Source: a virus (Duplodnaviria; Caudoviricetes). From it: a DNA stretch of 28,928 bases. Each line of letters starts with the position of its first letter. Position 1 is the stretch's first letter. This document shows positions 3,370 to 23,417 of the stretch, one piece after another. The notes beneath the pieces were generated by a model. It was given only the letters and a program-made list of their open reading frames with translations. It was not told where the DNA came from and made no database searches. Made by a program: the position numbers and the translations under genes. Location of the stretch: positions 1 to 28,928 of IMG/VR virus record IMGVR_UViG_3300017903_000259; one strand, 5' to 3'.

Positions 3370-3822
3370 TTATGATGTGGCTATTGCGTTTCCTATTTGT
3401 ACAACCTTCCAAGTTGGATTGCCTGCTGAATCATCTTCAATAACTGCCACTGCCAAACATTCTGTTCCTGCGTCACCGTTTGAACAGAAAGCGATGTCAC
3501 CTTGTGTGATATCAGTCCTTGCGTTCAATTGTGCTACAGTTTGTGGATTTAGTTTGAGAATGTGTTCCAAAACAACCTTGTCTGTAGAAGGATCTAATGT
3601 TAGATTATTACCTGAAGAACTGTTTAATTCATCTGGTAGTTGAGTAGCAGGTACTAGAGTGTTTGAGTCAAGCGAAGCTACTCCATTAGCAGTTGCTCTA
3701 CCATCAATAACATTTGTTAATTCGTCAAATGCCGCTTTGATGTCACCTCTAGCCAAAGCTGGAGAATCTGTTCCACTGTCTAAGTTAGTTGTTACTACAT
3801 TGCTTGATGTTGCCCATCCCAT
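3370..3822 (-). CDS. Minor virion/tail protein
   Basis: End of tail operon; GVASLD fibre-type motif; N-terminal module shared with 3833-4450 and 22800-23417; one DSAG; AGGAGG RBS. Confidence 0.65.
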   Translation of the reverse strand: MGWATSSNVVTTNLDSGTDSPALARGDIKAAFDELTNVIDGRATANGVASLDSNTLVPATQLPDELNSSSGNNLTLDPSTDKVVLEHILKLNPQTVAQLNARTDITQGDIAFCSNGDAGTECLAVAVIEDDSAGNPTWKVVQIGNAIATS

Positions 3823-3832
3823 GTTATACCTC

Positions 3833-4450
3833 CTATGATGTCGTTAATTGTTGTATTAGTATTCTAATAATTGGACTACCTGTTGCTTGTCCTTGTTCTT
3901 TAAAAGTTACAGTCTGTGGTGCTATTGGTACATTGTTTATCAACGCAACGTCAAAGTCATTATTACCGTTGCTTTCAACAATACCAAACAAGGTACAGCT
4001 ATCGCTACTTCTATTCATTTCACGTCTAGCAAATTCTTCAGCACCGTCTTTGTTGAATATGATTTGAAAATTAGTACCTAAGTTTGTAGCGGCAGGACTT
4101 TGTATTTCATAATATGTTTCTACAAAAATGCTGTGTTTTCCAACTGCTAATTTAAAGTCGCTAAACAAGCCAGCACTGTCTCCGTTAATAGTTACAATGC
4201 CTGATGGATCTTCTAAACCTGTGTAGGTAAAATTTGTTGTTTGATTTGACGTACTTACACCGTTTGAAAAGTTATTTGCTTTGTCTCCTGTGATCAAAGC
4301 TGTAGCACTTGTGCCTCCTAAAAGGTTTGCGTTGTAGTCCGCGGCAATGGTGTTGAAACCATCAACCAGTGTTTTTAGTTGTGGTCTTGCGTCTTTTAGA
4401 CTGTCATCATCATTGTCAAATGGTGCGTTGCTTGGTAAATCTACTGTCAT
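3833..4450 (-). CDS. Minor virion/tail fibre-like protein
   Basis: Shared N-terminal D-xxx-D-xxxx-AR module, beta-rich C-terminus, one DSAG. Confidence 0.6.
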   Translation of the reverse strand: MTVDLPSNAPFDNDDDSLKDARPQLKTLVDGFNTIAADYNANLLGGTSATALITGDKANNFSNGVSTSNQTTNFTYTGLEDPSGIVTINGDSAGLFSDFKLAVGKHSIFVETYYEIQSPAATNLGTNFQIIFNKDGAEEFARREMNRSSDSCTLFGIVESNGNNDFDVALINNVPIAPQTVTFKEQGQATGSPIIRILIQQLTTS

Positions 4451-5310
4451 TATGCTTCCCTAATGGACCCTGTACTGTCCGTTGATATTTGTTTCATTCC
4501 TGTTACGATTGCGTCAAACGTACAATCAATATTTTTTCTAGCACCAAACGTATTGGCGTCAAATATATTTAACGTTGGCGGCGTAGTGGATTTATCAATA
4601 AAGATAAACGGTGTAACACCTGTATCCAATAAGAAATAATTACCATCACCACTATCTCCTTCAACCACATAATCATCTGCCACGTATTTTGACACAACAG
4701 TATGTGGTTGCGTAATTATTGCTTCTACGCTACCAATTCCGCTGATAGAACCTGCGTCTAATTGACGTATGCCCACTGATCCTGACAGTGTGTCACTGTT
4801 TAGGTCATTTACTGTTCTTGTAATCTTGTCTGATGAAAGTTGTACGTTAATGTTCTTGATATATGGCATAACAAACGTATTTTCATCAACTGTAACGCCA
4901 GCACTGTCTTCGTCGTTGTCTACTGAAACGGTTACTATAAAATACCTTGCCTTTATTGCTTCTACTGAACTTGTGTTTGGACTTATTGTTACGCTGTTAG
5001 GACTGTCAATTGCTCCGCCACTGCTGTCAATGGTGTTTCCATACTGTATTGTAAGTGTTGCTGAATGGCTTGCGTCAACAGTAACCAAAGGATTTATTAA
5101 CTGTACTGATCCATTGTCAATTATGTCTGTTGTAAATGTTAATGGTAGGTCTGGTTCAATTGGAAAGCCCAGGTCAATACCATTACTGTCCCAAAACTGC
5201 CAAAAGTCCCAACCAGTGCCAGCACTGTCACCATACGTGTCCCAAGTAACTGTTGTTTGTGCTTGGTAGTATCCTTCGCCTCTGTTATAATATCCGTTAC
5301 CTGTTGCCAT
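4450..5310 (-). CDS. Virion structural protein (baseplate/tail-tip associated)
   Basis: Directly after the tail tip gene; acidic and Thr/Ser-rich; three DS[AS]G. Confidence 0.6.
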   Translation of the reverse strand: MATGNGYYNRGEGYYQAQTTVTWDTYGDSAGTGWDFWQFWDSNGIDLGFPIEPDLPLTFTTDIIDNGSVQLINPLVTVDASHSATLTIQYGNTIDSSGGAIDSPNSVTISPNTSSVEAIKARYFIVTVSVDNDEDSAGVTVDENTFVMPYIKNINVQLSSDKITRTVNDLNSDTLSGSVGIRQLDAGSISGIGSVEAIITQPHTVVSKYVADDYVVEGDSGDGNYFLLDTGVTPFIFIDKSTTPPTLNIFDANTFGARKNIDCTFDAIVTGMKQISTDSTGSIREA

Positions 5311-5311
5311 C

Positions 5312-7927
5312 CTAAATATCCATGTTCACGTTTACTGAATTATTACCTGCTGTGCCACTTGATACAGCCGCGCCATATCTTAGTGCTTGTAGGTAGTTTA
5401 AAAATGCTTCAATGTTGGTATCTGTTCGTCTGAATCCTCCACTGCCATATGTATATCCGTTTGGATTATCCTGTCTAAATTCATGTAGGTTACTGCCATC
5501 AGCAAAGTCCATCTGTACAGTGTCAATTCTCTTACGCCAACGTACCCTAATAAAGTCTGCTGGATCTCTAGGAGTAAATGTAATGGTAAGTGGTTTTCCA
5601 ACCCCAGTAAATTCATAGAAAGGATCTTTTTTGTTCGTATTATTTCTTGCCTGCCTCAGCTGATATATAATTTGTTCTTTTACAGTACCACTTTGTTGGT
5701 CTACACGTTCAATGACAAATTCATTCACAAAAGCATCTCTAGGCATACAAAGAGTCAATTCATAGGAAACGCCTGTGGTTAATTGAACTTGCTTTGCGTA
5801 ACCTTTTATAGGTCTTTTTAGTCTGTCAAATGCCGCTATCTTATAAGCATCTGGTCTTGTGTTTGGATCAACAAAAACGGCACCACTACTGTCTTCTGTC
5901 AAAGGATTATACAATGGGTAATCACTTGGCCAATCTTCACCAAATCCTGCGGCTGTGTTATTAGCAACTCTTGAGTCTTGTTTGTTAGACTTTGGTGTAT
6001 GAAACAGTCCTTGGTCACCAAAAGCAAACATCTTACCATAACCAGGCACATTATAAAAATTAGGATTAGGTACAGCGCCTATGTCCACGTCTGTTAATGA
6101 TAATTGTGTGTAAGGATCTTGATTAGTTACACATGGTAAGAAGAATCCGCCATCATAAGCCGCCCTAGTTAATGGTAACAAACCAACACCGTTATTAATA
6201 AATTGATCATAGTTGATTGCCAAGTAAGCCCTATTGAAGTTGTCAAACTTGTCTAATTTTTCTAATGGTATATCAAAGCTAGGTGGCAATCCTGTTTGTG
6301 CTCCTGCTGAATCATCTGGATCAAAAGGAGGAAACAAACCTAGTGCGTTTTCTGGTAAAGGACGCACATATGGAATGACCATAAATTCATCTGGTCTATA
6401 AAGTGGTGGTGGTATTTCAATCTGTGGTCCAGTTGTAAATGGATACAGCGTTGCGTCATGTTCAGCGGCATCTACCTTTACGTTGCCATCTGATAATAGT
6501 CGTAAACCTGTTACCCTAAATGTCTGTAAACTTAGATCAAGTATTGTGTCAGTAACCCTAATGATATCACCAACTTCAACGTCAAGTAGTTCTTGGGTAC
6601 CTGTGAATTCAATCTGTCTTTGCTTACGGCTTTTCTTGTAAATCATTTCAGCAAGGTCAAATGCTATTTGGCTGTTTGTAAGAGTATGGAAAGTAAATTC
6701 ACCTGTAAGTTCTTCTTCATTGTCAACAGTTTCATCACCTGATACGGTAAACACCCTTTGTTGGTTTGTAAAGTCTCTGTCTGGATCAACATAATTTACG
6801 AGAACTTGATTGAACTTGGAACCTTTACGTTCACCATCCATTGTTATGCCGCCAACAATCCTGTCCTTGTCAACGTCTAGTGCTACTGTTACCGTTGATG
6901 AAGTGATGTCCGTAGCGTTGCCTCCATCTTCTACCTTTAGTTTATAACGACCTTGTACGAAAGGCATTATACCTCTAGCACCAGCTGTTAGTATCTTTAC
7001 ATTGTCTAGGATCTTGTTATTGGTTTCTACCACAGCATTCATTGTCAATGCTCTACCTGAAATGCTTGGTGTATAGTTTACTGTCTGTTCATATTTGTTT
7101 GCGGCAATCCTAAAACTTTCTGCGTGTATTTCTGACACATCAAGTCCTGCTCCGTATCTAGGATTTTCTAAATAGTCTAATAAACAAGAAGCAGGGTTGA
7201 AACTGTAAGTTTTTGTTCTACTTCCGTACGCCGTAGACAGTTCAATGTTCCCAGCTGTGTGTGTTCTAACGTCAAATACCTTTTTACCTAGCACATCAAA
7301 CCTAACCTGTGGTATACCACCTGAGAATGGATTGTTATCTGCGTCTTCTTGTGTTTTTATTTCACTCCATTCAAAACGCATTACAGCATAGGCAAGTCCT
7401 GGTAGTTTTCTACTTCTCTTACCCCATGTAGCCGCTTCATTGGCTAAACTGCTTTGTCCTTGTGATTCAGTGCCGTTAAAAAACTGTAGTTTAATTCTAT
7501 TCTTGTATCTACCAGCTCCTACTGAATGAACAGTGCCAGCTGTATACTTGCCGCCTGAAGGTAAAGGTAATTCAATGTCATTTACCAATACCTTAGCGAC
7601 GCCCTCAATCTCTCCTTCACATAGTGCGTAAACAACATAGAGATATTTGTTGCTCGTACCATTTGTCTCAGTGAAGATGTTAACTCCGCCAACTCTCCTA
7701 AATCCATACACCACAGGTATTGCTAAATTTGTGCCCTGTTTGGTAACTGTAACACCCTGTGCCTGTTGCCCTGGATCTGGAATATCTGGTGTATCCATAG
7801 CGCCAAAAGGATTTAATACAAAGCCAATAACATCGCCAACAAAGTTGACAACACCCTTGATAGCGCCAACAATTACCTTGCCAATGCCGCCAATAACTTT
7901 ACCAATGCCTTTGGCTATGCCGCCCAT
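5312..7927 (-). CDS. Tail tip / central fibre protein (lambda J-like, phage-tail_3 type)
   Basis: IPVVYG, ALCEGEIEG, NPASCLLDYL..RYGAG, LEVGD-like motifs typical of host-specificity J proteins. Confidence 0.85.
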   Translation of the reverse strand: MGGIAKGIGKVIGGIGKVIVGAIKGVVNFVGDVIGFVLNPFGAMDTPDIPDPGQQAQGVTVTKQGTNLAIPVVYGFRRVGGVNIFTETNGTSNKYLYVVYALCEGEIEGVAKVLVNDIELPLPSGGKYTAGTVHSVGAGRYKNRIKLQFFNGTESQGQSSLANEAATWGKRSRKLPGLAYAVMRFEWSEIKTQEDADNNPFSGGIPQVRFDVLGKKVFDVRTHTAGNIELSTAYGSRTKTYSFNPASCLLDYLENPRYGAGLDVSEIHAESFRIAANKYEQTVNYTPSISGRALTMNAVVETNNKILDNVKILTAGARGIMPFVQGRYKLKVEDGGNATDITSSTVTVALDVDKDRIVGGITMDGERKGSKFNQVLVNYVDPDRDFTNQQRVFTVSGDETVDNEEELTGEFTFHTLTNSQIAFDLAEMIYKKSRKQRQIEFTGTQELLDVEVGDIIRVTDTILDLSLQTFRVTGLRLLSDGNVKVDAAEHDATLYPFTTGPQIEIPPPLYRPDEFMVIPYVRPLPENALGLFPPFDPDDSAGAQTGLPPSFDIPLEKLDKFDNFNRAYLAINYDQFINNGVGLLPLTRAAYDGGFFLPCVTNQDPYTQLSLTDVDIGAVPNPNFYNVPGYGKMFAFGDQGLFHTPKSNKQDSRVANNTAAGFGEDWPSDYPLYNPLTEDSSGAVFVDPNTRPDAYKIAAFDRLKRPIKGYAKQVQLTTGVSYELTLCMPRDAFVNEFVIERVDQQSGTVKEQIIYQLRQARNNTNKKDPFYEFTGVGKPLTITFTPRDPADFIRVRWRKRIDTVQMDFADGSNLHEFRQDNPNGYTYGSGGFRRTDTNIEAFLNYLQALRYGAAVSSGTAGNNSVNVNMDI

Positions 7928-8412
7928 TCATCTCTCCCTAGTTCAGCACAAAAATGATATCCTACTTCATTCATTTTGTTATGCTCACCAAAATACTTTC
8001 TAGCTTTATTTACATATTCAGACCGTACCTCATATTTGGCATCATGGGCCAATACACTTGCCTGGTAATACATACAATTATTTTCCAAGAACCAATTGGT
8101 CATGTATTTCCATAGATCATCCAACAGCAATTTATTTCTAACTTCTGGATGTATAAAGATATACATGATTTCACCATAGCGTTTGTTGTTCCAAAACTTT
8201 TCTTCAATGCTACCAATGATGTAACCAACTATCTCACCTCGTTGCTCAGCTATGAACATTTGGTAGTTGGCCTGTATCATAATCTGTCTCAACTGTTGTT
8301 TCACCCTACGTTTGTCCACGCTGTCATGTCCGTCCATGCCTGCGTCCTTACAGTGTATCAACGTAAGATTAGCAATAGCGTCTAGGTCTGTTGTGCTTGG
8401 TGCTCTTACCAT
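7915..8412 (-). CDS. GNAT-family acetyltransferase-like protein
   Basis: R.....DL..I N-terminus, IAEQRGEIVGY, EIMYIFIHPEVRNK (motif A-like). Confidence 0.65.
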   Translation of the reverse strand: MVRAPSTTDLDAIANLTLIHCKDAGMDGHDSVDKRRVKQQLRQIMIQANYQMFIAEQRGEIVGYIIGSIEEKFWNNKRYGEIMYIFIHPEVRNKLLLDDLWKYMTNWFLENNCMYYQASVLAHDAKYEVRSEYVNKARKYFGEHNKMNEVGYHFCAELGRDEWAA

Positions 8413-8990
8413 TATTTCTTACCCCATTTAATGTCCAATAAGCTATCATGGCTGTACTCCATACCAAAGTCCGTAGAAAATTCTCTTTGGAAACTTACTA
8501 GGTTGGTACGTCTACCAGTCTTTTTATCAAAGTTAGCAAATTGGCTTGTTACTTCAATTGTCAGTGTTGCCGTGTCGTCCGTGTCTTGTATTCTATATCC
8601 TGCTATCTTGCCCTTGAATAATGTAATGGCTTGATCGCCAGCACTGTCACCTACAAGCGTTTCTGTTTCAGGATTGAAAAACACACGTCTTACTGATACA
8701 TTTTGATTTATTTGGTTTGACTTTGCCAGTGTTTGTACAGTTGTAAGATCCAACGCACTGAGCACAATGTTGATGCTTGTTATCTTAAGATCCGCCGTCT
8801 CTTGGGTTTCTGAGATGCCCAAAAAATTGCCTTGTGCTGAATAGGATTGGCTGTTGTAGGTAACATCATAAGGTCCATCCGTATAATAAAGATCTGAGGC
8901 TCCATTTACACCAATGTCAATCAGTGTGTAGCTGATTAATTCATCACCAGCTAAATGGCTGTTTTGTACGGAGCTAAATTCTCTCGTCAT
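8412..8990 (-). CDS. Baseplate hub / minor tail protein
   Basis: Position after distal tail protein; YYTD..YDV.Y....Y...G and LFKG motifs typical of siphophage hub proteins. Confidence 0.7.
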   Translation of the reverse strand: MTREFSSVQNSHLAGDELISYTLIDIGVNGASDLYYTDGPYDVTYNSQSYSAQGNFLGISETQETADLKITSINIVLSALDLTTVQTLAKSNQINQNVSVRRVFFNPETETLVGDSAGDQAITLFKGKIAGYRIQDTDDTATLTIEVTSQFANFDKKTGRRTNLVSFQREFSTDFGMEYSHDSLLDIKWGKK

Positions 8991-9649
8991 TAGATCGCCT
9001 CAATTACATCTATTTCATATTCAACTAATTCATCTGTTCTATAGTTAAACTCTTGAACATCATTGTTCAATATCATTCTGAAAGGCACATTGGTTGAAGT
9101 AATACCTTCTTCATCCGTTAGTGCTTCTACAAGTCCAGGCTTGATGTTTAGTATGGCACCGCCTGCTGAATCCGTGTTTATGTCTGTTGATGCCATGTAT
9201 ACTTTTGTATGGCCAGCAAATCTTACAACATCACCTGCTTTTAACAATACTTGGTCACCTAGTGCCGTTCCTGCTGAGTCTGGCAGTGTTGTAATGTTGA
9301 TTGTTGTATCACCTGCTGAATGTGCCCCATCTACAAACAATCTACCATCTATGATTGATGCTATGCTTTGACCAGTAATAATATCAGTTGCTTGTGATTC
9401 ACTCACAGTTGGTATAACAATATCAAACTCATTTAGTCCACCATCTGTTTGTGCTATAAAAGCCTGTATTGGTCTAAATTCTGCTTGTGTCATTGGAGGA
9501 AACTGTAATGTACCTCCAAACACAGTTGTTGAATTTGTTGCTCTAATAATCCTACCACTCGCGGCTTGTGTTCTTTTTGTGCTGGTATTCATTGAAAAAT
9601 TTACAGACTGAAAACCAGGTGACGTTGGAAATGTACCTATGTATGCCAT
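8990..9649 (-). CDS. Distal tail protein
   Basis: Immediately after tape measure; PPMT...F, LKAGD..RFAGHTKVYM motifs. Confidence 0.75.
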   Translation of the reverse strand: MAYIGTFPTSPGFQSVNFSMNTSTKRTQAASGRIIRATNSTTVFGGTLQFPPMTQAEFRPIQAFIAQTDGGLNEFDIVIPTVSESQATDIITGQSIASIIDGRLFVDGAHSAGDTTINITTLPDSAGTALGDQVLLKAGDVVRFAGHTKVYMASTDINTDSAGGAILNIKPGLVEALTDEEGITSTNVPFRMILNNDVQEFNYRTDELVEYEIDVIEAI

Positions 9650-12126: not shown

Positions 12127-12280
12127 GATTCATGCTCTCCTTACCTTTATTGTGTTGTAGCTTAAACCAAGCATACCAAAGGTTTATTTCAAGGACACTG
12201 AGTTGTAAAACCTTCTCCAAAGGCATCGTAAGCGTTTCCGCTATACGCATCAACAATTGGAGCTCAATGTCCTCCTTTAG
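12089..12280 (-). CDS. Tail assembly chaperone -1 frameshift extension (gpGT-like)
   Basis: Slippery A AAA AAC at 12280-12286 just before the TAA; the -1 frame reads LKEDIELQLLMRIAETLTMPLEKVLQLSVLEINLWYAWF...RPR stop at 12089. Confidence 0.8.
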   Translation of the reverse strand, partial: LKEDIELQLLMRIAETLTMPLEKVLQLSVLEINLWYAWFKLQHNKGKESMNRGNANTRNPRPR

Positions 12281-12910: not shown

Positions 12911-13324
12911 TTACGCGGCCGCAATCGTTAATGCTCCAGTACCTTGGAAGTTGACTGTAGCTGTGATTAGATCATCAAAACTTGCTGTTCTTGATACAGA
13001 AGTTACAATGATAGATCCACTAAACTTTTGTCCACCACCACTTGGTGCTGTTGTGTAGAATTCAACGGTTAAGTCTCCATCCTGTGACGCATCAAAGGCA
13101 TTACTTGCCGCTGTGTGTCCATCATCATAGATGACTTCCATTGATCCTGTGAACTGGTGTAGTCCACTCTTGTATGTTCTTGCCGCATCGCCCATGACTG
13201 TGTCTTCAATCACATCTTTTGTGTGTTCCACTGTCCAGGAACGAACTTGGGCAATAGTAGTTAGACCAGATGTATCTTCGTGTGTGATATCAACCTGTCC
13301 ATTTTCACCTGTATAAGTTGCCAT
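12911..13324 (-). CDS. Major tail tube protein
   Basis: 137 aa; VRSW, EDTVMGD..RTY..GL..FTGS, FQGTGAL pattern of siphophage tube proteins. Confidence 0.85.
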   Translation of the reverse strand: MATYTGENGQVDITHEDTSGLTTIAQVRSWTVEHTKDVIEDTVMGDAARTYKSGLHQFTGSMEVIYDDGHTAASNAFDASQDGDLTVEFYTTAPSGGGQKFSGSIIVTSVSRTASFDDLITATVNFQGTGALTIAAA

Positions 13325-14063: not shown

Positions 14064-14070
14064 TTACACT

Positions 14071-14523
14071 CTACCTTTTAAGGCGTAGGTAGTGTGTTGG
14101 TTCTCTTTCAATGTCATCCACTGTACCACTACTGTCCGCATCATATTCTACTCCGTCTCTTAAGACTAGATCAAATTCACGTTCGTATTCTTTTCTATAG
14201 AACTCCATTTTACGTTCAAATAGATCAGTCTCTGGTTCAAATTTTGCTAATTTTGGATAGATATGAAAACCTAACGCATGATAGGCTGTTGCCCTTGTTA
14301 GTTGTGAAGCAGTATACAGGTCTTCGTCTGGCTCTAGGTTGTTACCAGCTAATTTTTTAATATCGTATACATTGATTGAATAAGTTGGAAACCAGCGGAT
14401 CCTTAGATCTCTAAAAACATCTGATTGTGCTTTTGTGATTTCAGCATCAAAGTCTTGGATGCCGTAGTTTAAAATGTCTGGTTCGTATTCTTGTACGTCA
14501 CTTATCGTTGCTAATGTTGGCAT
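14071..14523 (-). CDS. Head-tail adaptor protein
   Basis: First gene after the MCP; helical; C-terminal YDADSSGTVDDIE EF-hand-like loop. Confidence 0.7.
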   Translation of the reverse strand: MPTLATISDVQEYEPDILNYGIQDFDAEITKAQSDVFRDLRIRWFPTYSINVYDIKKLAGNNLEPDEDLYTASQLTRATAYHALGFHIYPKLAKFEPETDLFERKMEFYRKEYEREFDLVLRDGVEYDADSSGTVDDIEREPTHYLRLKR

Positions 14524-14577: not shown

Positions 14578-14584
14578 CAGTTAC

Positions 14585-14614
14585 AAAAGAATAGGGGGCA
14601 AAATCCCCCTATTC
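14585..14614 (-). terminator. Rho-independent terminator after major capsid gene
   Basis: GAATAGGGGG-ATTTTG-CCCCCTATTC 10-bp stem followed by TTTT on the minus strand. Confidence 0.85.
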
Positions 14615-14627
14615 AATATCTTTATGA

Positions 14628-15482
14628 TTACTGTTGGTCGTCTGCGATCAACTTAACGCCATAAGCGTCAAACAGTTCTGCGGAACCATAAGCCATTGTA
14701 CCAACGATTTCATCAGCTCTTGCTGAAGCATCTCTTTGTGTTTCAATTCTCATGTTACGCTTAACCATGTAGCCAATTGCGTCTTGAGCAAATACAGCAC
14801 CAATACCAGCACCAGCTGAGTCTGGTGTTGCGTCAGTTACTACTGTTGACTCAAAAATGTCAATACCAGCAAGTCTGCCTACGAAACCGTCTCTAAGTGC
14901 GATATTACCAATGTCACTTAGGTTGTGTGACATAGTAGCACCTGCGTTAGTTAACACTTTCTTAAGCTGTAATGCTTGGTTTGGTGAAATAACAGCTACG
15001 TATGGTCCAGGAGCCTTGTTATTTTTCAGTGTAGCGGCCGCTTTGAAGAAAGTCTCTGTAGTAATTTCTTCATCGCCAGAACCTACTGAATTTGAAAAGC
15101 CTTGGAATAATGTAGCTAGATCTGTGTCCACCTTCACTGCCATTGCGTCACCCATTTGACGTCCAATAGCCGCGGCTACGTCTTCGTTAGCTGACTCTTT
15201 AGCCAAGTCAGTTAGTTCAACCATAACACCTACTTCAGCGGCTGTGATAGTCTTTGAAGTTGTGTTAAAAGCTGTGTTTGACATATCAGTACCGTCTGTT
15301 AGATCAGCGGCTGATAGTGCTGGATAGATTGGAACCTGTGCTGTTAAGCCTGGTGTTCCAGTCATATCATAGTTTTTTACGAGCGGTCTGATTACTGTTC
15401 TCTCTGAAAGAGTGAATAATGCCGCTTGTACCATATTAGCGTATAGTTCACTTAATACACTTGCGGTTGCTTCTTGTGCCAT
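14628..15482 (-). CDS. Major capsid protein (HK97 fold)
   Basis: 284 aa after the scaffold gene; G.TAQVP, A..VDTDL, G.VGRLAGIDIFES, IETQRDAS.RADEIV patterns; strong AGGAG RBS; followed by a terminator. Confidence 0.9.
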   Translation of the reverse strand: MAQEATASVLSELYANMVQAALFTLSERTVIRPLVKNYDMTGTPGLTAQVPIYPALSAADLTDGTDMSNTAFNTTSKTITAAEVGVMVELTDLAKESANEDVAAAIGRQMGDAMAVKVDTDLATLFQGFSNSVGSGDEEITTETFFKAAATLKNNKAPGPYVAVISPNQALQLKKVLTNAGATMSHNLSDIGNIALRDGFVGRLAGIDIFESTVVTDATPDSAGAGIGAVFAQDAIGYMVKRNMRIETQRDASARADEIVGTMAYGSAELFDAYGVKLIADDQQ

Positions 15483-15505
15483 AATGTTTCTCCTTTAGTA
15501 GCAAT

Positions 15506-16198: not shown

Positions 16199-16257
16199 TA
16201 TATACCTCTTTCTAATTGGTTGAGTTCTACCACCTGCCCTCTATTAGCAGTATGTTG

Positions 16258-16264
16258 TATTTAT
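16258..16264 (-). promoter_or_regulatory. ATAAATA promoter motif for scaffold/MCP
   Basis: Intergenic, about 60 nt upstream of the scaffold ATG. Confidence 0.65.
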
Positions 16265-16284
16265 CAAACCTAAACTTTTTCAGC

Positions 16285-16437
16285 TTATTTACGGCGTCTT
16301 CCGCCACGGTTTGTTTTTTTCTTCTTCTTTTTACCACCACGCATTGCCATGATATCTCTCCCTATTGATTTTAATTTAAACCTACGCTTTCGCATACGTT
16401 CGCCTTGGAGTCCTCCAAGACTTGACGCAGTAATCAT
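16285..16437 (-). CDS. Tiny protamine-like basic peptide (50 aa from 16437 or 21 aa from 16350)
   Basis: Not in ORF track. MITASSLGGLQGERMRKRRFKLKSIGRDI-MAMRGGKKKKKKTNRGGRRRK; ATGA overlap at 16434-16437; GGGAGA RBS before the internal ATG at 16350. Confidence 0.6.
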   Translation of the reverse strand: MITASSLGGLQGERMRKRRFKLKSIGRDIMAMRGGKKKKKKTNRGGRRRK

Positions 16438-16730
16438 TTGCGTCCCTTCTTTAGAATGTTTCTAGCCCAACTCAAGCCTGCTGAACCTCCCCATCCTAAA
16501 TAAGCCTGTGTGCCAGGTGTATTCTTGCCTGGCTTGTAATATGCTTTTGCTCTGCTTAAAAAACTAAATGTTCTTTTTACAGTTGCCATTGAAACGTTTT
16601 TTCCTTTTGAAAATTGATTTGCCCTTTGTAGTCCTACTGGTGTCATGCCCTTACGACTTGCTGGTGCTTTGTTTCTAAGTGCCAATGCTCTCTTGGCGTT
16701 ACGCATCATTGCTTTGGTTGGTTTAGGCAT
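16434..16730 (-). CDS. Basic hypothetical phage protein
   Basis: No acidic residues; GMTPVG..RA.Q, TVKR..SF, WGG.AG..WA pattern familiar from uncharacterised phage proteins. Confidence 0.7.
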   Translation of the reverse strand: MPKPTKAMMRNAKRALALRNKAPASRKGMTPVGLQRANQFSKGKNVSMATVKRTFSFLSRAKAYYKPGKNTPGTQAYLGWGGSAGLSWARNILKKGRK

Positions 16731-16975
16731 TACCTTTTTCTCCTCATGCTTCTACGTAAATCTAGATCATGTTTTCTTGAGCCTCTGATAAAACTGTTTA
16801 CTCTGCCCATTGCCCATTGTGCCATTCCTATGCCTGGTCTTGATCCTGAACTTAAAAACGCACCCTGTCCACGACGAAATACTTTACGCAGAGTACCTAC
16901 AGGTATGCCACTACGTTTTGCCTTGGCCTGTAAACTTTTAACGACGCTTTGTCTTAGAGGTTTTCTTTTTGCCAA
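16730..16975 (-). CDS. Basic hypothetical protein (RG.GA..SSGSRPG...QWA..RVNSF family)
   Basis: Likely TTG start at 16975 with AGGAGAG RBS; very Arg/Lys-rich. Confidence 0.7.
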   Translation of the reverse strand: MAKRKPLRQSVVKSLQAKAKRSGIPVGTLRKVFRRGQGAFLSSGSRPGIGMAQWAMGRVNSFIRGSRKHDLDLRRSMRRKR

Positions 16976-17162
16976 GATTAACTCTCCTATCAATTAAACT
17001 TTGTGGTATTCTCTTGCCTGCCTTGGCAAGTTTGCTTATTCTTGTTTGAAGACGTGCTACGGCGCTTCTACGTGCGCCTGTGAGCCCACTTAGATACTTT
17101 TTAGGTATACCTGTTTTCTTGTCTTTTGGTACCCGTCTTCTAGATGATTTCTTTGATGCCAT
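16938..17162 (-). CDS. Highly basic hypothetical protein
   Basis: MASKKSSRRRVPKDKKTGIPKKYLSGL...; coupled to its neighbours. Confidence 0.65.
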   Translation of the reverse strand: MASKKSSRRRVPKDKKTGIPKKYLSGLTGARRSAVARLQTRISKLAKAGKRIPQSLIDRRVNLGKKKTSKTKRR

Positions 17163-17340
17163 CCAAATATCCTAAACTGATGCCTATTGCTGATAGGCTT
17201 ACAATTACACTAACTGTTATCAAAAACAATCCAATCTTCGTGTATATGTTAAGATGCTTTAGATGATTGTCTACAATAAGGTCCAGCTTGTCCTCAATGC
17301 TAGACATACGCTTTTCCAAATCTGTTACTTCAACTTTCAT
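17140..17340 (-). CDS. Small membrane protein (coiled coil plus one TM)
   Basis: LEKRMSSIEDKLD...NHLKH followed by a hydrophobic helix; GGAGG RBS. Confidence 0.6.
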   Translation of the reverse strand: MKVEVTDLEKRMSSIEDKLDLIVDNHLKHLNIYTKIGLFLITVSVIVSLSAIGISLGYLDGIKEII

Positions 17341-17581
17341 TTATGCCCTCCCAACTTGGATGTTCTTGCCATCCTAGTGTTTTGCTACGTTCCAATATTT
17401 CCTTGCGTCTTGTTCTACATAGATGGAACAGTTCCAGTAGATTCTTTCGTGCCCTCACGCCTGCCGCCTTAGAATCTTTTGTTTCAAATTTGTGTATGTT
17501 TTCGTTATACTCTGCCAACACTTGCCTAATGTTTTTTTCAGTGCCATGTATAAAGTCCCTATCTGGTACATACTTACCCAT
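17330..17581 (-). CDS. Histone H1-like (Hc1-type) protein
   Basis: KAAGVRARKNLLEL matches the KAAGxRARKxxLEL core of Hc1-like proteins; start at 17581 or 17596. Confidence 0.6.
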   Translation of the reverse strand: MGKYVPDRDFIHGTEKNIRQVLAEYNENIHKFETKDSKAAGVRARKNLLELFHLCRTRRKEILERSKTLGWQEHPSWEGINES

Positions 17582-19079
17582 CCTGATTATTCCCAAAGAA
17601 CTGTGCTATTTCTGGATGAAGTTCCAATATCTGTTCATTGGTATAACCTTGCTGTAACATCTCTCTCATATGATTGATCATGTCCTGTGGATTGGTCATA
17701 GGAGTGTGTGTCATTGTTGTTTGTAACTGTGGCGCTTCGTAAGGTTGCTCCATAATTGTTTCATATATTTCCTTGTCCAATGCGTCAACAATATTAGGAT
17801 CAGCAATGTTTGCCTCCTTGGCTAATTTCAGCATAGCCACGTCATTTGCTTTGTCCTGGATTGAGAATGATCTAGCATATTCAACTTCACCATTCCATAC
17901 GTTGCCTTGGTACATTGCCCAACAACGCCAAATCTGTTCTTCAGCGTGTTCATAGTTCATTGCGAAGTCTGCCAATTTAGCATTTAGCATTTGGAACTCC
18001 GTTTGTAAACCTATACCTGACAAACGTCTGCTTTCAATAGAACGTATGCCACCTAGGCAAGCCATTCTATCAATTGCTTCTACCCTCTTATCCATTGCGT
18101 TAATGAGACTGTCAATACTTGCTCCATTAGGTTGTAGCAAATAAGGTTTAAGTCCTGGATCAGCACCTTGTGGTATTTGTATAATTGATCCTGCTCCAGC
18201 CGCCGCTTCAACGCCCACTTCTTTAACAAGTGATGGATGATTAGTTAGTCTAATAATTTGCTCCATCTCACTTGAATATTCATTTAATTCTTTTTGTATG
18301 TCTGCTATGTCTCCAATGGCACTAATACCAACACCACGTATGTTTGAACGCTGTGCGTATACACATACCGCAGGCACTCTGCCTAATGCGTTTGGAATAG
18401 TTTCAACTAGGTCTGCTTCTTTTTCATCAGCATCAATTAGGTATACGTTTATTTCTTCAGGAGTGTATTCTCTAATGTACTGTTTGTTGTCAGCAATCTC
18501 TTCTTTTACTTTGAGATATGTAAGAACGTAAAGACCATTTGTAAGTCTATCATAGCTCCAATCCAATACGTTGTCAGGAGTAAACATAGAAACGTAAGGA
18601 CGTATTGACTGTTCTAGTTCATCTGCCCTTGTTCTTGTTACAACGTTTGGTTTGTCTATAACACACCATACATTACCATATACCATTGCGTAAGCACTTA
18701 GGTCTTTCATGAAACTTTCAAAGCTTCTACCATCTAGATCTGCGTCTTTGAGGAATGGTTCTAGTCCTGGATCGTTTGCTATTGATCCATACTCTCTCTT
18801 AACTTCCTTGCGGAACAAGAAACTGTTGTATATACCAACAACGCTTTTTACATGGTTGTCTAGTCCAACCATTCTCAAACGTTTTTCGTAATCGTCTCTT
18901 GATTCGTAATAGTAAGGTTCCAGGTATTTGCCTGTGTAGTAATCGTAACCTCCCTGGAAGCTGTCACCTAAAAACAACCATCTGTTTATGTAGTGTTTGT
19001 ATGCTGTATGTGATTCTACCAAATAGTCTATATTTTGTATTGAACCACCTTTAATTATCCTGTCTCTTATTGCTGGCAT
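17574..19079 (-). CDS. Portal protein
   Basis: 501 aa after terL; Y..RL, DADLDG, RPY, N.LG.VP, SGIGLQTEF motifs. Confidence 0.9.
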   Translation of the reverse strand: MPAIRDRIIKGGSIQNIDYLVESHTAYKHYINRWLFLGDSFQGGYDYYTGKYLEPYYYESRDDYEKRLRMVGLDNHVKSVVGIYNSFLFRKEVKREYGSIANDPGLEPFLKDADLDGRSFESFMKDLSAYAMVYGNVWCVIDKPNVVTRTRADELEQSIRPYVSMFTPDNVLDWSYDRLTNGLYVLTYLKVKEEIADNKQYIREYTPEEINVYLIDADEKEADLVETIPNALGRVPAVCVYAQRSNIRGVGISAIGDIADIQKELNEYSSEMEQIIRLTNHPSLVKEVGVEAAAGAGSIIQIPQGADPGLKPYLLQPNGASIDSLINAMDKRVEAIDRMACLGGIRSIESRRLSGIGLQTEFQMLNAKLADFAMNYEHAEEQIWRCWAMYQGNVWNGEVEYARSFSIQDKANDVAMLKLAKEANIADPNIVDALDKEIYETIMEQPYEAPQLQTTMTHTPMTNPQDMINHMREMLQQGYTNEQILELHPEIAQFFGNNQDG

Positions 19080-20329
19080 TAGCTATATCTCCTGTTATGT
19101 GTACTACCAGAAAATGCCCAACGCTGTGGTTCTGAAGTAGTGTGTTCTGTTCTTAATGGGAACAAGAAGTCACACAAATAACCAACGGCATCTGCCATAT
19201 GGTCTAATTCACCGTCCTTTTCAATTACGGACGTACCTGGTTTGTATACCATCTTTTCTAAACTACTTATTATGTTTCTACACTTGGGGTCAACGAACAA
19301 GGTGCGTGTTCCCTGCGTGTTCTTTAATTTTGCGTTGACAGAGTTTACCCTGTCTCTAATTGCTGTGTGACTGTTCCTGACCTTTACTGTGAATCCTGCG
19401 TTTTGTAGGATAGAAATATCTGTGCGTCCACCAGCTGATGTTTTCCTTTGTCTACCTGCTGGATCTGGATACATAATGATCCTTGAATTAGGATATCTAC
19501 GTTTAAGTTCATCACAAGCTTCATCTGTGTTTGAACCTCTGATACAAATTTCATCTATAAAGTTAACAGTGTTGCCTTCAATAACTGACACTGCTACACT
19601 CATTGGATCAACGTTGAAATCAATCCCACAGTGTATTTCTCTTGTATCCATGTTGTTACAAGGCATAATGGTTTGTTCTCTATCAAAGTTGTAATAAACT
19701 ACACCTGAATAGGTTGTAAACGTTGCCATGTATTCCTGTTCAAATGTTCTTTCATCCATGTCCCTTTTTGCCGCTTCAACTTCAGCTTCTGGAACCTGGC
19801 CACCTTCAAGTGTGGTGTATGTAAAGCTATCCCAATCATCTGTTATACCTGCCATTGAATACATTTCATGGCTCCATGAGCCAACACCTCTTGGTGTGCC
19901 TAAGAACAGTGCGTGTCCGTTTTTGTCAGATAAGGTTGGTCTAAGCACTTCAGTAAATGCTTTGGGTTCAATATCTTGAAACTCATCTAACACCAAAAAG
20001 TCCAATCCAACTCCTCTCAAACTGTCAGGAGCATCTGCTCCTTTCAAATATATTTTGCTACCATTCTTAAGACGCATATACATTTCCGCCTCATTGGTAG
20101 CATCTACCCAACGCAAGGACTTTAATCTATCCTTTAGTTGGTCCCACACAATGTTCTTTGCCATCCTATAGCTAGGTGCTACATACCAAACCAATTTATC
20201 TGGTTGGCTGGCAAAACGTGCCAATTCTCTCATTGCCACGTGTGTCTTACCAAATCTACGTCCAGTAACCGCTACACGGAATCTGGCTTCTGAATCACAT
20301 ATACTCTTTTGGGGGGTGCTTAAAGGCAT
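19079..20329 (-). CDS. terL: Terminase large subunit
   Basis: Walker A GRRFGKT, Walker B LVLDE, GTPRG coupling motif, GIDFN and DH.ADA nuclease motifs; TAATG coupling at 20329. Confidence 0.95.
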   Translation of the reverse strand: MPLSTPQKSICDSEARFRVAVTGRRFGKTHVAMRELARFASQPDKLVWYVAPSYRMAKNIVWDQLKDRLKSLRWVDATNEAEMYMRLKNGSKIYLKGADAPDSLRGVGLDFLVLDEFQDIEPKAFTEVLRPTLSDKNGHALFLGTPRGVGSWSHEMYSMAGITDDWDSFTYTTLEGGQVPEAEVEAAKRDMDERTFEQEYMATFTTYSGVVYYNFDREQTIMPCNNMDTREIHCGIDFNVDPMSVAVSVIEGNTVNFIDEICIRGSNTDEACDELKRRYPNSRIIMYPDPAGRQRKTSAGGRTDISILQNAGFTVKVRNSHTAIRDRVNSVNAKLKNTQGTRTLFVDPKCRNIISSLEKMVYKPGTSVIEKDGELDHMADAVGYLCDFLFPLRTEHTTSEPQRWAFSGSTHNRRYS

Positions 20330-20652
20330 TAGTCCTCCCAAGGTAATGGCATTTTATTTTCACTGTCCTCTGGTGTATCCTTCATACCAAGGTACTGCTT
20401 TGATAAGAAAATTTGAATCCTTGTGTCCCCGTTCATTGCCTTTTCCCACATAGCTCGCCTTAATGTTTTTTTGCCTTCTTGTTTGCCTTTGTCTAGTATA
20501 TTTCCAAATCTTTTTCTTAATGTTGCGGCAGTTGTACCTACCACTTCAGCAATCTCCTGATCTGAGCATTGGATACAAGACAGTTTGTACACAAGATCTC
20601 TATCTATGGTCTTGTATTTTCTGTTTGTATTTTTTTGCTCTGTATCTGACAT
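20329..20652 (-). CDS. terS: Terminase small subunit
   Basis: HTH (SDQEIAEVVG...TL), LRRAMWEKA..GD..IQIFLSKQYLG; directly upstream of terL. Confidence 0.8.
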   Translation of the reverse strand: MSDTEQKNTNRKYKTIDRDLVYKLSCIQCSDQEIAEVVGTTAATLRKRFGNILDKGKQEGKKTLRRAMWEKAMNGDTRIQIFLSKQYLGMKDTPEDSENKMPLPWED

Positions 20653-20984
20653 TATGCTTGTCTCTCCACGACTTTTATTCTAATGTTTCTTGAATCCTGT
20701 TTGCTGTTATCAGTTACTATCTTGTATTCAACATTGTAAATGTTACCTGCCGTACCAGCACTTAATATTGCTGTTGATAGGTAATTTGTGTTGGTTGAAC
20801 TGTCTACAGCCAAAGGACTCGCGTCCCCTGATATTGTTTCAACTGTTACTGTTATGCTGGAGATTACTTCTCCACTAGGCATCCAGTTGGTCCAATCCAG
20901 GGTATAATCTAGCACGGCATATGGATCTTTTTCAATGTAAGGTCCAACTCTGTCCTGCTTGAATCCTGTTAGTGTATGTCCCAT
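20652..20984 (-). CDS. Virion structural/adaptor protein
   Basis: KDP.AVLDY..DW..W and G.AG..Y motif family of small phage fibre-adaptor proteins. Confidence 0.65.
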   Translation of the reverse strand: MGHTLTGFKQDRVGPYIEKDPYAVLDYTLDWTNWMPSGEVISSITVTVETISGDASPLAVDSSTNTNYLSTAILSAGTAGNIYNVEYKIVTDNSKQDSRNIRIKVVERQA

Positions 20985-22267
20985 TAACTTTCTCTCCTGT
21001 CTAGTGGATTGCCTGCTACCTCAACTAAAGTTAGGTTTTGAATCTCTAGCTTTCTGCTTTCAGAAGGTATGATTCTTGACCTAGATTCAGCCTCAATAGT
21101 ATTTATGCGATCTTCTGAATCCACCGTAAATTTCCGTGGTTCCTGTGCTATAACCAGCGTTCTTTGTTCATTATCTATTGCTAATACACGGAACGGATCT
21201 ATGTTGTAAATTGTTATTGTTGAAAGCACGGCACTGAATGCTCTAAGTGTGGCTGTTCCACTAAAGGAAGCTCCACCTATAGCTGATAGTGATGTTGTGC
21301 TTGTCAATGTGCCTGTAAAGCCTCTTGTCACTGATGGTGTTGAAGATAATGTGCCTGTTGCTGTTAGATCTATTGTGCCTGAAAACTTACTTTGAGAAAC
21401 TGCTGTTAATGTTGCTGTTGATACTAGGTCAGCACTACCTACCGCTGTAAATCCACCTATTGAATCAACCTGTGATGAACTTACAAGGTTAGCTGTTCCT
21501 AGTTTTAATCTTCTTGCTGTAGCTTCTAAGTTTGATGTGCCTTGTACTGACGCTTCACCTGAACGTATTCTCAAACCTTCTGCTGTAACAGTGCCTAAAC
21601 TTGCGGCTAATACTGTGCCTGTTTGTGTTAAATCACCATCTACAGTTACAGCTGAAGAACTTGTAAGTGTTGCTTCAAACTGTTTTATTCTGTTTGGTGT
21701 TGCTGTAAGAGTACCTAAGCTGGCTACCAATGCCGCTCCGTCTACTGTAAGAGCGCCTGTGGCAGTTAATGAACTTTGTACAGCAATGTTTACGATGCCT
21801 GACTTTTTCTTTATGGCGTCAGCTGTAAGTGTGCCTGCCCATGTGTTTGGTGCCGCATCATCCCATGAAGTTCTGCCTTCCCATGTGTGATTGTCACTGT
21901 CAAATCCAACAAGGTCTGCTTCACCTTGTTTGGTTTGTACACCTGCGGCTGTTAGTGATGTGGTTGCTGTAAGGCTTGCTTCAAGGCCTGCTGTTGCTTT
22001 TGCCGTTATTGAAGCAGTCAAGGCACCAGCTATTGATACCGTTGCCCTCTTGGTTTGAGGTGCTGAACAGGTAAGTGCTGATGCGCCTACTAGGCTAGAT
22101 TCACCAGGACGAATCCTAGTACAGGTTACTGATACTGCTGTTGTGCTTGTAAGACTGGCTTCACCTAATGTTACACCACTTACATAGTCTTCTGCTACAT
22201 AGGAACCAGTAACATAATCATCTGCCGTATAGCCTGTGGCTAGATATATGTCACTAACGTAAGACAC
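20984..22267 (-). CDS. Ala/Ser/Thr-rich repetitive structural (fibre-like) protein
   Basis: Imperfect repeats of about 20 aa (GxAxLxxxxxLxA); GTG start with AAGGA RBS. Confidence 0.65.
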   Translation of the reverse strand: MSYVSDIYLATGYTADDYVTGSYVAEDYVSGVTLGEASLTSTTAVSVTCTRIRPGESSLVGASALTCSAPQTKRATVSIAGALTASITAKATAGLEASLTATTSLTAAGVQTKQGEADLVGFDSDNHTWEGRTSWDDAAPNTWAGTLTADAIKKKSGIVNIAVQSSLTATGALTVDGAALVASLGTLTATPNRIKQFEATLTSSSAVTVDGDLTQTGTVLAASLGTVTAEGLRIRSGEASVQGTSNLEATARRLKLGTANLVSSSQVDSIGGFTAVGSADLVSTATLTAVSQSKFSGTIDLTATGTLSSTPSVTRGFTGTLTSTTSLSAIGGASFSGTATLRAFSAVLSTITIYNIDPFRVLAIDNEQRTLVIAQEPRKFTVDSEDRINTIEAESRSRIIPSESRKLEIQNLTLVEVAGNPLDRRES

Positions 22268-22288
22268 AAGTAATATCCTTGTGTTCTA

Positions 22289-22741
22289 TTAAGTTAATGT
22301 GACTGTCAAATTTGATGCCTGGATTTCAAACGTATCACCTGACTCAATTGTTTTAGCTGTAGTCAGTGCGCCGTAGAATAATACGTTACCTGCTCCTGCT
22401 GAATCATTGTCTTTAGCCTGTGCTTCAGCATCAAGGATTGCTACGTGGGTGATTGTACCCCAGTTGCCATCTGTTGCTGTTGGAAACGTAATTGCTCCAC
22501 TGTTGCTGACTGATCCACCTGAAATGGTTCCAAAAGTTACTGCTTTTCTTTGGTATCCACCACCTTGGCATTCATGTGTCAGTGTGCCTGCTTCTAATAG
22601 TTCGTCCGTTGCTCCTGAACTGTCATCTGTGTTAAAGAGTCCAACGAAAACTGTAGAAGGAGACGATGTGCTTTGTGCGTTGTTCTTAAGGAAGAAGTCT
22701 AAAACTCTTTCTTCCAAATAGTTACTTGCGGCGTTGCTCAT
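22289..22741 (-). CDS. Virion structural protein (fibre/whisker-associated)
   Basis: SNYLE, GGGYQR, FPTAT..WGTITH, GNVLFYGAL..KTI..GD pattern; two DS[AS]G; own promoter motif and AGGAGG RBS. Confidence 0.7.
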   Translation of the reverse strand: MSNAASNYLEERVLDFFLKNNAQSTSSPSTVFVGLFNTDDSSGATDELLEAGTLTHECQGGGYQRKAVTFGTISGGSVSNSGAITFPTATDGNWGTITHVAILDAEAQAKDNDSAGAGNVLFYGALTTAKTIESGDTFEIQASNLTVTLT

Positions 22742-22781
22742 AGGTTAACCTCCTGATTAATTATTTTATATCGCGATACAG

Positions 22782-22788
22782 TATTTAT
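22782..22788 (-). promoter_or_regulatory. ATAAATA promoter motif
   Basis: Intergenic, upstream of the start at 22741. Confidence 0.65.
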
Positions 22789-22799
22789 GTGTATTCTCA

Positions 22800-23417
22800 T
22801 TATGTGTACTTAGATATGCGTATAAACGCTCTTCCTGACGTTGTGAAGTTGTTATCTACAGTCGCTTTGAATTCAATTGTTTTTGTGCCTGTAAGTGTGA
22901 AAACTAAATTTGTATTGAAATCTGCGGTTGCGGATTTAGGGGTAACTTCCGCAATTAAATTATCATCTGTGGCATTACGAACGTCAATTGAAGTTGTACC
23001 AGTGCCTTTGTCAATGGTTGATTCAAACTCTAACCAATATGTAGCCGCTGTTAAACTTATTTGATCATTGCTTATAGATATGAATCCAGCACCATCAAAT
23101 ATTTCTGATAATGGTATTTTCAAGACTCCAGACGCTCTGTTACCAGCACTATCTAAATTTAAGTCTGTTGCGTCTGCCTTTATTATTGCCTGTTGCCCTG
23201 CCGCGCCTATTGACCCACTTGCTACCTGTTCCCACTTGCTTGTTGAACTAGAATATTGTAGTAAGTCTCCGTCGCTTGGAGAACTAATGTTGAATTCATC
23301 AATAATATCATTTACATTATCAATGTTTTGTTTTATGTCTGCCCTAGCGTTTCTTAATAAATCATTTCCATTATCAACGTGGGTAGTACCTGCTTTTGAT
23401 CCTGATGGCCAACTCAT
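22800..23417 (-). CDS. Fibre-like virion protein
   Basis: Shared N-terminal module, PSDGDLLQY....KW fibre motif, beta-rich C-terminus, one DSAG. Confidence 0.65.
   Translation of the reverse strand: MSWPSGSKAGTTHVDNGNDLLRNARADIKQNIDNVNDIIDEFNISSPSDGDLLQYSSSTSKWEQVASGSIGAAGQQAIIKADATDLNLDSAGNRASGVLKIPLSEIFDGAGFISISNDQISLTAATYWLEFESTIDKGTGTTSIDVRNATDDNLIAEVTPKSATADFNTNLVFTLTGTKTIEFKATVDNNFTTSGRAFIRISKYT

Follow-up and report, generated by a model that had tools for sequence, protein, structure and literature searches.

The general O-glycosylation system of the Bacteroidota acts in the periplasm and recognizes the sequon D-(S/T)-(A/I/L/V/M/T). Virion glycosylation has so far been established for a few mycobacteriophages, and we know of no particle-wide sequon in these viruses. 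For Che8-type mycobacteriophages, Freeman et al. reportedly described in 2023 neutral glycans that glycosyltransferases build on one or two proteins, at C-terminal serines. According to passages of two reports, phage-encoded glycosyltransferases modify the capsid and the tail tube of such virions (PMC10877033, PMC11256854). Maf enzymes modify flagellin without a sequon; excerpts of the Maf literature describe them as cytoplasmic, acting directly on Ser/Thr (PMC12645811), and as transferring CMP-activated nonulosonates, with Kdo and Neu5Ac also accepted (bioRxiv 2020.06.03.131540). Here, we analyzed a DNA stretch of 28,928 nucleotides from a Caudoviricetes phage (IMG/VR record IMGVR_UViG_3300017903_000259, positions 1 to 28,928; called the window throughout), in which the tetrapeptide DSAG recurs across the predicted particle proteins. 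A sequence-only reading of this DNA had proposed D-S-[A/S]-G as phage-wide serine modification tag on particle surfaces and had likened it to the Bacteroidota sequon and to the acceptor sites of Aah/TibC heptosyltransferases. The 30-kb phage family of the window appears to encode both an address spread over the whole particle and, as candidate writer of minimal size, a 182-residue Maf-like protein. Glycosylated virions and the chemistry of Maf enzymes have both been described, but within the literature searched we found no stand-alone Maf-like domain that reads a tetrapeptide all over the particle. That literature contained only mycobacteriophage-type and general mentions of virion glycosylation and no paper on a DSAG motif of phages, and among the DSAG papers listed none concerned phage proteins by title; most subscription papers were outside the search, so absence is unproven.

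The window represents a siphovirus-type genome (28.9 kb, 93% complete, with about 2 kb missing). Its minus strand carries the genes for terminase, portal, scaffold, HK97-fold capsid, tail tube and tape measure, and also those for a T5-like distal tail protein, a hub, a J-like tip and several minor/fibre proteins. A six-frame search yielded 11 DSAG and 4 DSSG in minus-strand coding frames, and these 15 sites in 10 proteins are exactly those listed before (the earlier coordinates give the low end of each 12-base stretch). One extra DSAG was found at position 15313 on the plus strand in a non-coding frame. For control we carried out 2000 within-protein shuffles. In the 17 predicted virion proteins (4284 amino acids) the 15 DS[AS]G sites compare with a shuffled mean of 0.39 (maximum 4), and the 11 DSAG with 0.21 (maximum 3), which agrees with the earlier estimate of less than one DSAG by chance. 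Across all 42 window proteins the count was also 15 versus 0.54 expected and thus, the result is independent of the virion and non-virion labels. DSAG occurs in 9 different proteins, whereas in 300 shuffles no tetrapeptide, whatever its sequence, was present in more than 6 proteins. Since serine is encoded by TCA at 6 of the 15 sites and by AGT/AGC at 9, a DNA repeat or artefact is ruled out as source of the motif, and the motif is, as proposed, one of the protein level.

Two other statements of the sequence-only reading stood in part. No site was found in the other 25 window proteins (4999 amino acids), as had been said of non-virion and buried proteins, but 0.13 sites were expected there and this absence is not significant alone. 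The residue preceding the motif, described as usually D/E/G/P, is one of these at 10 of the 15 window sites, but family-wide this preference is weak (1.8- to 3.1-fold) and Thr is the commonest residue at this position. Six of the 17 virion proteins carry neither a site nor a variant (neck1, terminator, gp77-like protein, LamG protein, 427-residue and 389-residue fibre proteins). The tail tube variant that had been noticed before was found as DTSG, and a DSTG variant that was absent from the earlier list was detected in addition. The sites and variants are as follows; the open reading frames at 3833 and 4450 are called virion proteins from gene position only, having no Pfam or PHROG match.

3421..3432, minus strand: DSAG in a 150-residue minor virion protein (3370-3822; weak PHROG minor tail protein match); motif in 11/13 dereplicated homologues at 2 positions.
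4169..4180, minus strand: DSAG in a 205-residue protein (3833-4450), virion by gene position; motif in 6/6 homologues at 3 positions.
4468..4479, minus strand: DSTG variant at the C-terminus of the 286-residue protein.
4897..4908, minus strand: DSAG in the 286-residue protein (4450-5310); motif in 19/20 homologues at 8 positions.
5017..5028, minus strand: DSSG in the 286-residue protein; relatives have DSAG or DSTG in the same column.
5218..5229, minus strand: DSAG in the 286-residue protein.
5882..5893, minus strand: DSSG in the tail tip/J-like protein (5312-7927; PF13550, phrog_31); the closest relative has DSAG.
6302..6313, minus strand: DSAG in the tail tip protein; 15/25 homologues at 7 positions.
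8637..8648, minus strand: DSAG in the baseplate hub (8412-8990), on an insertion missing from untagged homologues; motif in 19/32.
9161..9172, minus strand: DSAG in the distal tail protein (8990-9649), which aligns to T5/DT57C-type pb9.
9269..9280, minus strand: DSAG in the distal tail protein, on an insertion; 14/33 homologues at 4 positions.
13265..13276, minus strand: DTSG variant in the tail tube protein; relatives have DSAG in the same column, and DS[AST]G occurs in 26/43 homologues.
14125..14136, minus strand: DSSG in an EF-hand-like loop of the head-tail adaptor, probably not a tag.
14811..14822, minus strand: DSAG at residues 221-224 of the major capsid protein (HK97 fold); 37/45 homologues.
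22394..22405, minus strand: DSAG in the gp80-like protein (22289-22741), on an insertion.
22613..22624, minus strand: DSSG in the gp80-like protein, DSAG in relatives; motif in 19/24 homologues.
23142..23153, minus strand: DSAG in a 205-residue minor/fibre protein (22800-23417); 13/28 homologues at 5 positions.

A fibre protein at 24223-25392 has internal repeats (VxDTTPQLGGxLD) and no DSAG; its orthologues carry 1-4 sites.

The tagged family consists of small (30-kb), uncultured aquatic phages, of which hundreds of contigs were sampled; relatives were collected via the major capsid protein (MCP) and via a KpsC-like gene, and whole records were then read. The window's closest relative is G001 (MCP 96%) and its closest annotated relative is phage DSL-LC06 (MCP identity 71%), after which the HTVC111P-type pelagiphages follow (47-48%). 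Core proteins and gene order are common to the window and the DSL-LC06 group, to which we provisionally assign it. The accessible text of the DSL-LC06 paper proposes this phage as family 'Nanhuiviridae' with Pseudomonadota as predicted host, and mentions a possible glycosylation system via a GNAT gene but neither a motif nor a virion modification (PMC10611076). DSL-LC06 has the same gene order as the window, 8 DSAG, and Maf-like, KpsC-like and GT9 genes.

We counted DSAG per genome in the virion proteins other than the adaptor. Thirteen of the 14 near-complete family genomes are tagged, with 6-16 DSAG versus about 0.2 expected in each (window 11, G001 13, G002 11, G003 9, G004 12, G005 9, G039 11, G040 12, G041 9, G043 15, G054 6, G069 16, DSL-LC06 8). 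G070, which is 76% complete, has 3, and a tag-poor lineage has 0 or 1 (G012 1, G010 0, L061 1). In the pelagiphage sister clade all four genomes or contigs have none (HTVC111P, HTVC026P, L059, L060), and HTVC111P and HTVC026P remained at 0 with a wider protein set. The fibre region of HTVC111P is rich in other tripeptides, which are probably repeats. Pooling 201 virion proteins of 12 genomes gave 118 DSAG versus 2.3 expected (these proteins are orthologues and so not independent), which is about 50 times chance for predicted particle proteins. Non-virion and inner proteins had a single site in 43,704 amino acids; portal, tape measure, terminase, scaffold and chaperone had 0 versus 0.87 expected, which does not prove avoidance. 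A 238-residue gene between small and large terminase (G002:12423-13166, G003, G005, G022) is usually DSAG-tagged and has homologues in the T4-like genomes G055, G060 and G061; its product is a possible mobile decoration protein.

Single-change neighbours of DSAG stayed mostly at background (observed/expected: DTAG 2/2.9, ESAG 2/1.3, DGAG 2/2.4, DSAA 1/2.6; DAAG 0). Above background were DSSG with 24 (11 of them in the adaptor), DSTG (10 vs 3.0), ASAG (10 vs 3.6), HSAG (5 vs 0.3) and DSAN (6 vs 1.6). From the DTAG count it can be seen that Thr does not substitute for Ser, and Gly is needed at position 4. Taken together, these data indicate with high confidence that the DSAG tag is real, specific and lineage-wide and that all four residues matter. 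D-S-A fits the Bacteroidota sequon, but the pattern D[ST][AILVMT] occurs in virion proteins at background frequency (26 vs 24.6), as does DSA followed by a residue other than Gly. Because this pattern is not enriched, Thr is not accepted and Gly is required three residues after Asp, the Bacteroidota sequon is ruled out as explanation.

In sequences dereplicated at 90%, the motif was seen at 36 alignment positions spread over 11 protein families, and both TCN and AGY serine codons are present at 17 of the 25 positions that are occupied in at least two sequences. Sites are gained and lost, and the serine itself is under selection. The segments around tag sites vary more in length among homologues (median 0.50) than those around 401 other Ser/Thr (median 0.15; p 1.3e-4), and several tag sites are carried on insertions. 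In the capsid protein the site forms a coil between two A-domain strands, in a low-confidence model (mean pLDDT 54.8) that is too weak for statements on solvent exposure; from the known architecture of HK97 and pb9, the tag loops would be expected to face outward. Among 92 distinct MCPs, the Asp of this site changed to Ala, Asn or Pro on several separate branches, with the loop otherwise kept. Because the sites turn over, sit in variable loops and tolerate changes of Asp without loop change, their pattern reads as a recognition word, unlike a fold requirement. DSAG is very probably an acceptor site for an enzyme. The proposed phage-wide serine tag is thus upheld in being protein-level, family-wide, residue-specific and placed in variable loops, but both analogies on which it leaned, Bacteroidota and Aah/TibC, failed.

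The same data bear on the possibility that the tag acts non-covalently. It could form a preferred turn, bind a metal, or be the word on which a decoration protein docks. Hairpin turns of the type D-x-x-G are common, and Asp and Ser are Ca ligands. The adaptor DSSG does fit an EF-hand-like loop (typical pattern Dx[DN]xDG): it sits in D-x-D-x-S-G-x-V-x-x-x-E, the loop length is invariant in 46/46 homologues and the spacing D1-x-D3-x-[DSN]5-G6...E12 is kept in 25/25 aligned adaptors, untagged lineages included. Tag-poor and sister lineages keep this loop with other residues. The adaptor DSSG is, from these alignments, probably better read as such a loop than as a tag, and the loop is likely a Ca-binding site in the neck; it lies in the adaptor C-terminus (window 14071-14523) and is common to the family and the pelagiphage sister clade. 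For the tag at large, however, DSAG makes up 118 of the 403 D-x-x-G in tagged virion proteins but 0 of 56 in the sister clade, and other D-x-x-G are not enriched, which rules out a generic turn preference. An Ala in position 5 of an EF-hand is unable to coordinate Ca, the capsid Asp is replaced while its loop stays unchanged, and the sites occur in unrelated folds and arrive with insertions. A non-covalent role is therefore quite unlikely.

The best candidate for the writer, judged by model, fold match, profile match and distribution, is encoded outside the span (3421..23153) of the sequence-only finding:

25830..26378, minus strand: Maf-like/sialyltransferase-fold protein, 182 amino acids.

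The AlphaFold2 model of this protein has a pLDDT of 87. Among 48,161 chains its best fold match was the Magnetospirillum Maf (PF01973; PDB 5mu5) with Z 13.4, a root mean square deviation of 3.8 and 162 aligned residues. The aligned part of 5mu5 (residues 271-514) is the central GT-A-variant, CstII-like domain. A profile of 176 family sequences aligned with 21 Maf domains at 95% probability and E 2.4e-8 (HH-align), and a GNGPS-type motif aligns between the two families. The near-invariant D46 and D108 (98% conserved in 176 sequences) fall on the conserved Glu and the G-x-D of Maf; the mapping to Maf E324/D415 is by pattern and so tentative. Two acidic residues are essential in Maf, according to the available part of a preprint (bioRxiv 2020.06.03.131540). 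According to the Maf excerpts, Maf works in the cytoplasm and transfers sugar directly to Ser/Thr in surface loops of a protein that self-assembles; for the phage protein such an activity is proposed only. Mafs are mostly about 690 residues long with N- and C-terminal domains, but the phage protein is a bare catalytic domain that lacks these accessory parts and has no PF01973 match; it works like a Maf at best and is not itself a Maf. The Maf excerpts name one substrate and no sequon, but the phage family has a strict tetrapeptide on about 10 unrelated proteins. No flagellin was found in the window by Pfam or PHROG.

Lower fold matches were SteA (Z 10.3), HPPK (Z 10.0), CstI (Z 9.6), thiamine pyrophosphokinase (TPK, Z 8.6) and ST6GalNAc2 (Z 8.0). 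The GT42/GT29 sialyltransferases among them (CstI/CstII, ST6GalNAc2) belong to the same fold family with lower Z than Maf, and their acceptors are sugars, not Ser. Because HPPK and TPK have the same fold and a TPK-family chain was Foldseek's weak top row, the Maf-like fold protein or another enzyme might add a non-sugar mark (pyrophosphoryl, nucleotidyl, phospho) by HPPK- or TPK-like chemistry. However, Maf is ahead by 3 Z units over a larger number of aligned residues, the gene lies among glycosyl-, methyl- and amidotransferase genes, and the Atlas suggests PF01973 and a family of Kdo transferases (scores 0.88 and 0.85; leads only). We regard a non-sugar mark as distinctly improbable.

The Maf-like family comprises 480 representatives at 50% identity and its Atlas neighbours are viral. 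The DSL-LC06 homologue is labelled alpha-2,3/8-sialyltransferase in GenBank, one of nine family members has a weak phrog_4603 match, and among 96 remote homologues PF01973 matched one, at E 1e-4 below the cut-off. Sequence searches of the PDB with the Maf-like and KpsC-like profiles gave nothing useful. The window copy forms a long-branch subfamily that is 16-19% identical to the relatives' copies at the same locus, and no genomic context was found for this subfamily. G001 carries a canonical copy (26859-27410, about 17% identical to that of the window) together with KpsC-like, GT8-like and 157-residue nuclease-like genes; the window has FkbM where G001 has this set, as in a swapped glycan module.

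The Maf-like gene was found in 8/8 records that are at least 90% complete and in 17/25 of all searched, and also in G069, G070 and DSL-LC06; it is absent from the complete HTVC111P and HTVC026P. It is the only family of 17 tested that is present in every tagged genome. Two enzyme genes are core: that of the 180-residue GNGxS protein, placed directly upstream of the fibre genes, and that of a 300-residue protein labelled KpsC in DSL-LC06. The latter assignment is a lead only (GenBank label, and Atlas PF05159 on 17% of the cluster).

The KpsC-like gene points to a different order of events. In this view DSAG would again be a glycosylation sequon, but its first sugar would come from a KpsC/KpsS-like GT-B or a host cytoplasmic transferase, and the Maf-like protein would cap or extend it as CstII does. 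It is present in 13/13 other near-complete family genomes, and CstI and ST6GalNAc2 also match the Maf-like fold. A host writer would further explain tag loss in G012 with phage genes kept, and unchanged tags beside the divergent enzyme of the window. On the other hand, the window (93% complete) lacks the KpsC-like gene, which could be in the missing part, and the 6 T4-like genomes read lack it too; it is also kept by tag-poor G012, it occurs without DS[AS]G in G050, G051 and G053, and its family assignment is a lead. This alternative appears unlikely to us. G050, G051 and G053 are large-phage fragments whose glycan islands hold 2-3 KpsC-like paralogues and GT-A genes; they gave no Maf-like match and no DS[AS]G.

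The other glycan-related genes of the window and a conserved neighbour are:

3..683, minus strand: GT9-like glycosyltransferase, truncated by the edge of the window (sub-threshold PF01075 match, E 0.0012); accessory.
670..2292, minus strand: AsnB-like amidotransferase; accessory, in 2/15 family genomes and L055.
26918..27604, minus strand: FkbM-family methyltransferase; accessory.
25430..25873, minus strand: 147-residue conserved protein whose gene is flanked by the Maf-like gene and the fibre genes, in most family genomes; no Pfam, PHROG or NCBIfam match.

Phage-encoded glycosyltransferase genes are thus present, GT9-like and Maf-like in the window and several more in relatives. The view that the tag is modified by a GT9 heptosyltransferase similar to Aah/TibC, or by a system like that of the Bacteroidota, can draw on the GT9-like gene in 4/15 family genomes (window, G001, G070, DSL-LC06). 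However, PF01075 was found in 0/5 complete tagged genomes and the window GT9 in 1/5 near-complete relatives, and comparison of relatives with and without GT9 showed tags without the gene and a weak PF01075 protein in untagged HTVC111P. Since GT9 is missing from 5/5 complete tagged genomes it is ruled out, and largely refuted, as family-wide writer; it could add a second sugar in some strains. The Aah/TibC analogy falls with it and, the Bacteroidota pattern being at background, we find this explanation hardly credible. AsnB, FkbM, other methyltransferases, GT-A and GT8-like proteins are ruled out as universal writer by their patchy presence, and GNAT because it is also at the sister-clade position and missing in G002 and G004. 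The AsnB-like and FkbM-family genes possibly serve glycan tailoring. The AsnB-like gene adjoins GT9 in the window, but sits between portal and scaffold in L055 (7419-9146), and in HTVC111P (L037, 24562-27878) a GT9-like gene directly follows the tail fibre gene.

A tblastn search of 50,697 phage genomes yielded one further Maf-like homologue, in the T4-like phage C48C1, and 262 IMG/VR stretches encode close relatives of that homologue. In three of these T4-like genomes DS[AD] is enriched in conserved outer proteins (observed/expected: G059 29/5.5, G060 17/3.1, G061 15/1.8), and G059 has 9 DSAG versus 1.2 in 7 proteins. In 7/7 control T4-like phages without a close homologue DS[AD] amounted to 2-5 versus 1.5-4.4; the controls were read in the baseplate region only and C48C1 in part. 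In the marine T4-like G059, G060, G061 and C48C1 (L202-L204), D-S-[A/D/E] is abundant in proteins of the baseplate, sheath, neck and fibres, and a 33-residue fibre repeat of C48C1 keeps D-S at three different sub-positions.

Direct transfer of a sugar onto the tag by the Maf-like protein is, in our judgement, the best single mechanism, with the balance of arguments about even. Several observations weigh against it. A tag-poor lineage (G012/G010/L061, 0-1 DSAG) is nested in the family as sister to tagged G041/G045 (support 1.0), and its G012 (85% complete) keeps intact-looking Maf-like and KpsC-like genes. The window enzyme is divergent, yet the window's tags match those of its closest relative. 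The co-occurrence is biased, since five near-complete genomes (G039-G043, G054) were found via the KpsC-like gene adjoining the enzyme. Among the T4-like phages, 3 of the 6 enzyme-bearing genomes (C48C1, G055, G056) have only 4-5 versus 4.5-5.0 in core outer proteins, and their DS[AD] enrichment is confined to fibre repeats and a few loops; weak distant homologues occur in three of the controls (E 9e-5 to 3e-3); and the related G059, G060 and G061 count as about one event. As to the enzyme, its fold is common to the non-sugar enzymes SteA, HPPK and TPK, Foldseek gave weak rows only and no match at E<=0.001, a shallow profile of 43 sequences reached Maf at 52% over 25 columns only, and the window protein did not match PF01973 above cut-off. 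Mafs, in the accessible part of one report, use extra domains and have no known sequon (PMC11339370). The tag-poor lineage retains one hub site, and our guess is that this single site may suffice to keep the enzymes. Its members (G012, G010, L061, L145, L157) show near-complete secondary tag loss, a capsid Asp to Ala change and a fibre of 1050-1150 amino acids; no more complete genome of this lineage was found.

If the Maf-like protein is the writer, as we infer for the serine modification and its enzyme alike, DSAG would be the acceptor signal that is kept in length-variable loops of predicted particle proteins. The enzyme encoded at 25830-26378 would attach an acidic sugar to the DSAG serine before or during assembly, with a CMP-activated ulosonic acid of the host (Kdo or a nonulosonate) as presumed donor. 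More speculatively, the glycan might be extended and varied by the KpsC/KpsS-like gene that relatives carry and by the exchangeable genes for GT9, GT-A, methyltransferases and amidotransferases, and the outcome might be a strain-specific anionic coat. It is a tentative extension that the stand-alone Maf-like domain is a sequon-reading O-ulosonyl transferase that would decorate all DSAG loops of the particle, that further phage genes would shape the glycan into a mimic of host capsule or lipopolysaccharide core, and that the writer is portable across unrelated marine siphoviruses and T4-like myoviruses. Compared with the mycobacteriophage type, the tagged family has another enzyme class and a word across head, tail and fibres in a Gram-negative-type marine phage. 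A single protein of 182 residues and a single peptide are enough to test the proposal. Should it hold, glycosylated virions would extend to abundant aquatic phages and a sequence rule would predict them from genomes; a small soluble enzyme would install sialic-acid-like sugars at a four-residue glycotag, and a sequon would for the first time be defined for an enzyme of the Maf type. The tag-loss lineage offers a natural ecological comparison.

The window stretch was matched by contigs of seawater runs (3 runs of one study, of which the best may be the source), and no RNA run containing it was among the runs listed. One 28-kb family contig (L137) is filed within a Porticoccaceae metagenome-assembled genome, in which PF01973 was not found, and two sister-clade contigs are filed within Flavobacteriales assemblies; these contigs are probably mis-binned, L137 being otherwise a weak host hint. 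The scaffold-to-portal interval of the window (16285-17596) holds six short open reading frames, five of them very Lys/Arg-rich, with an Hc1 histone-H1-like match (PF07432) and DUF5824 among them. The Hc1-like gene is present in most family genomes, and the Lys/Arg-rich products are possible DNA-condensing core proteins.

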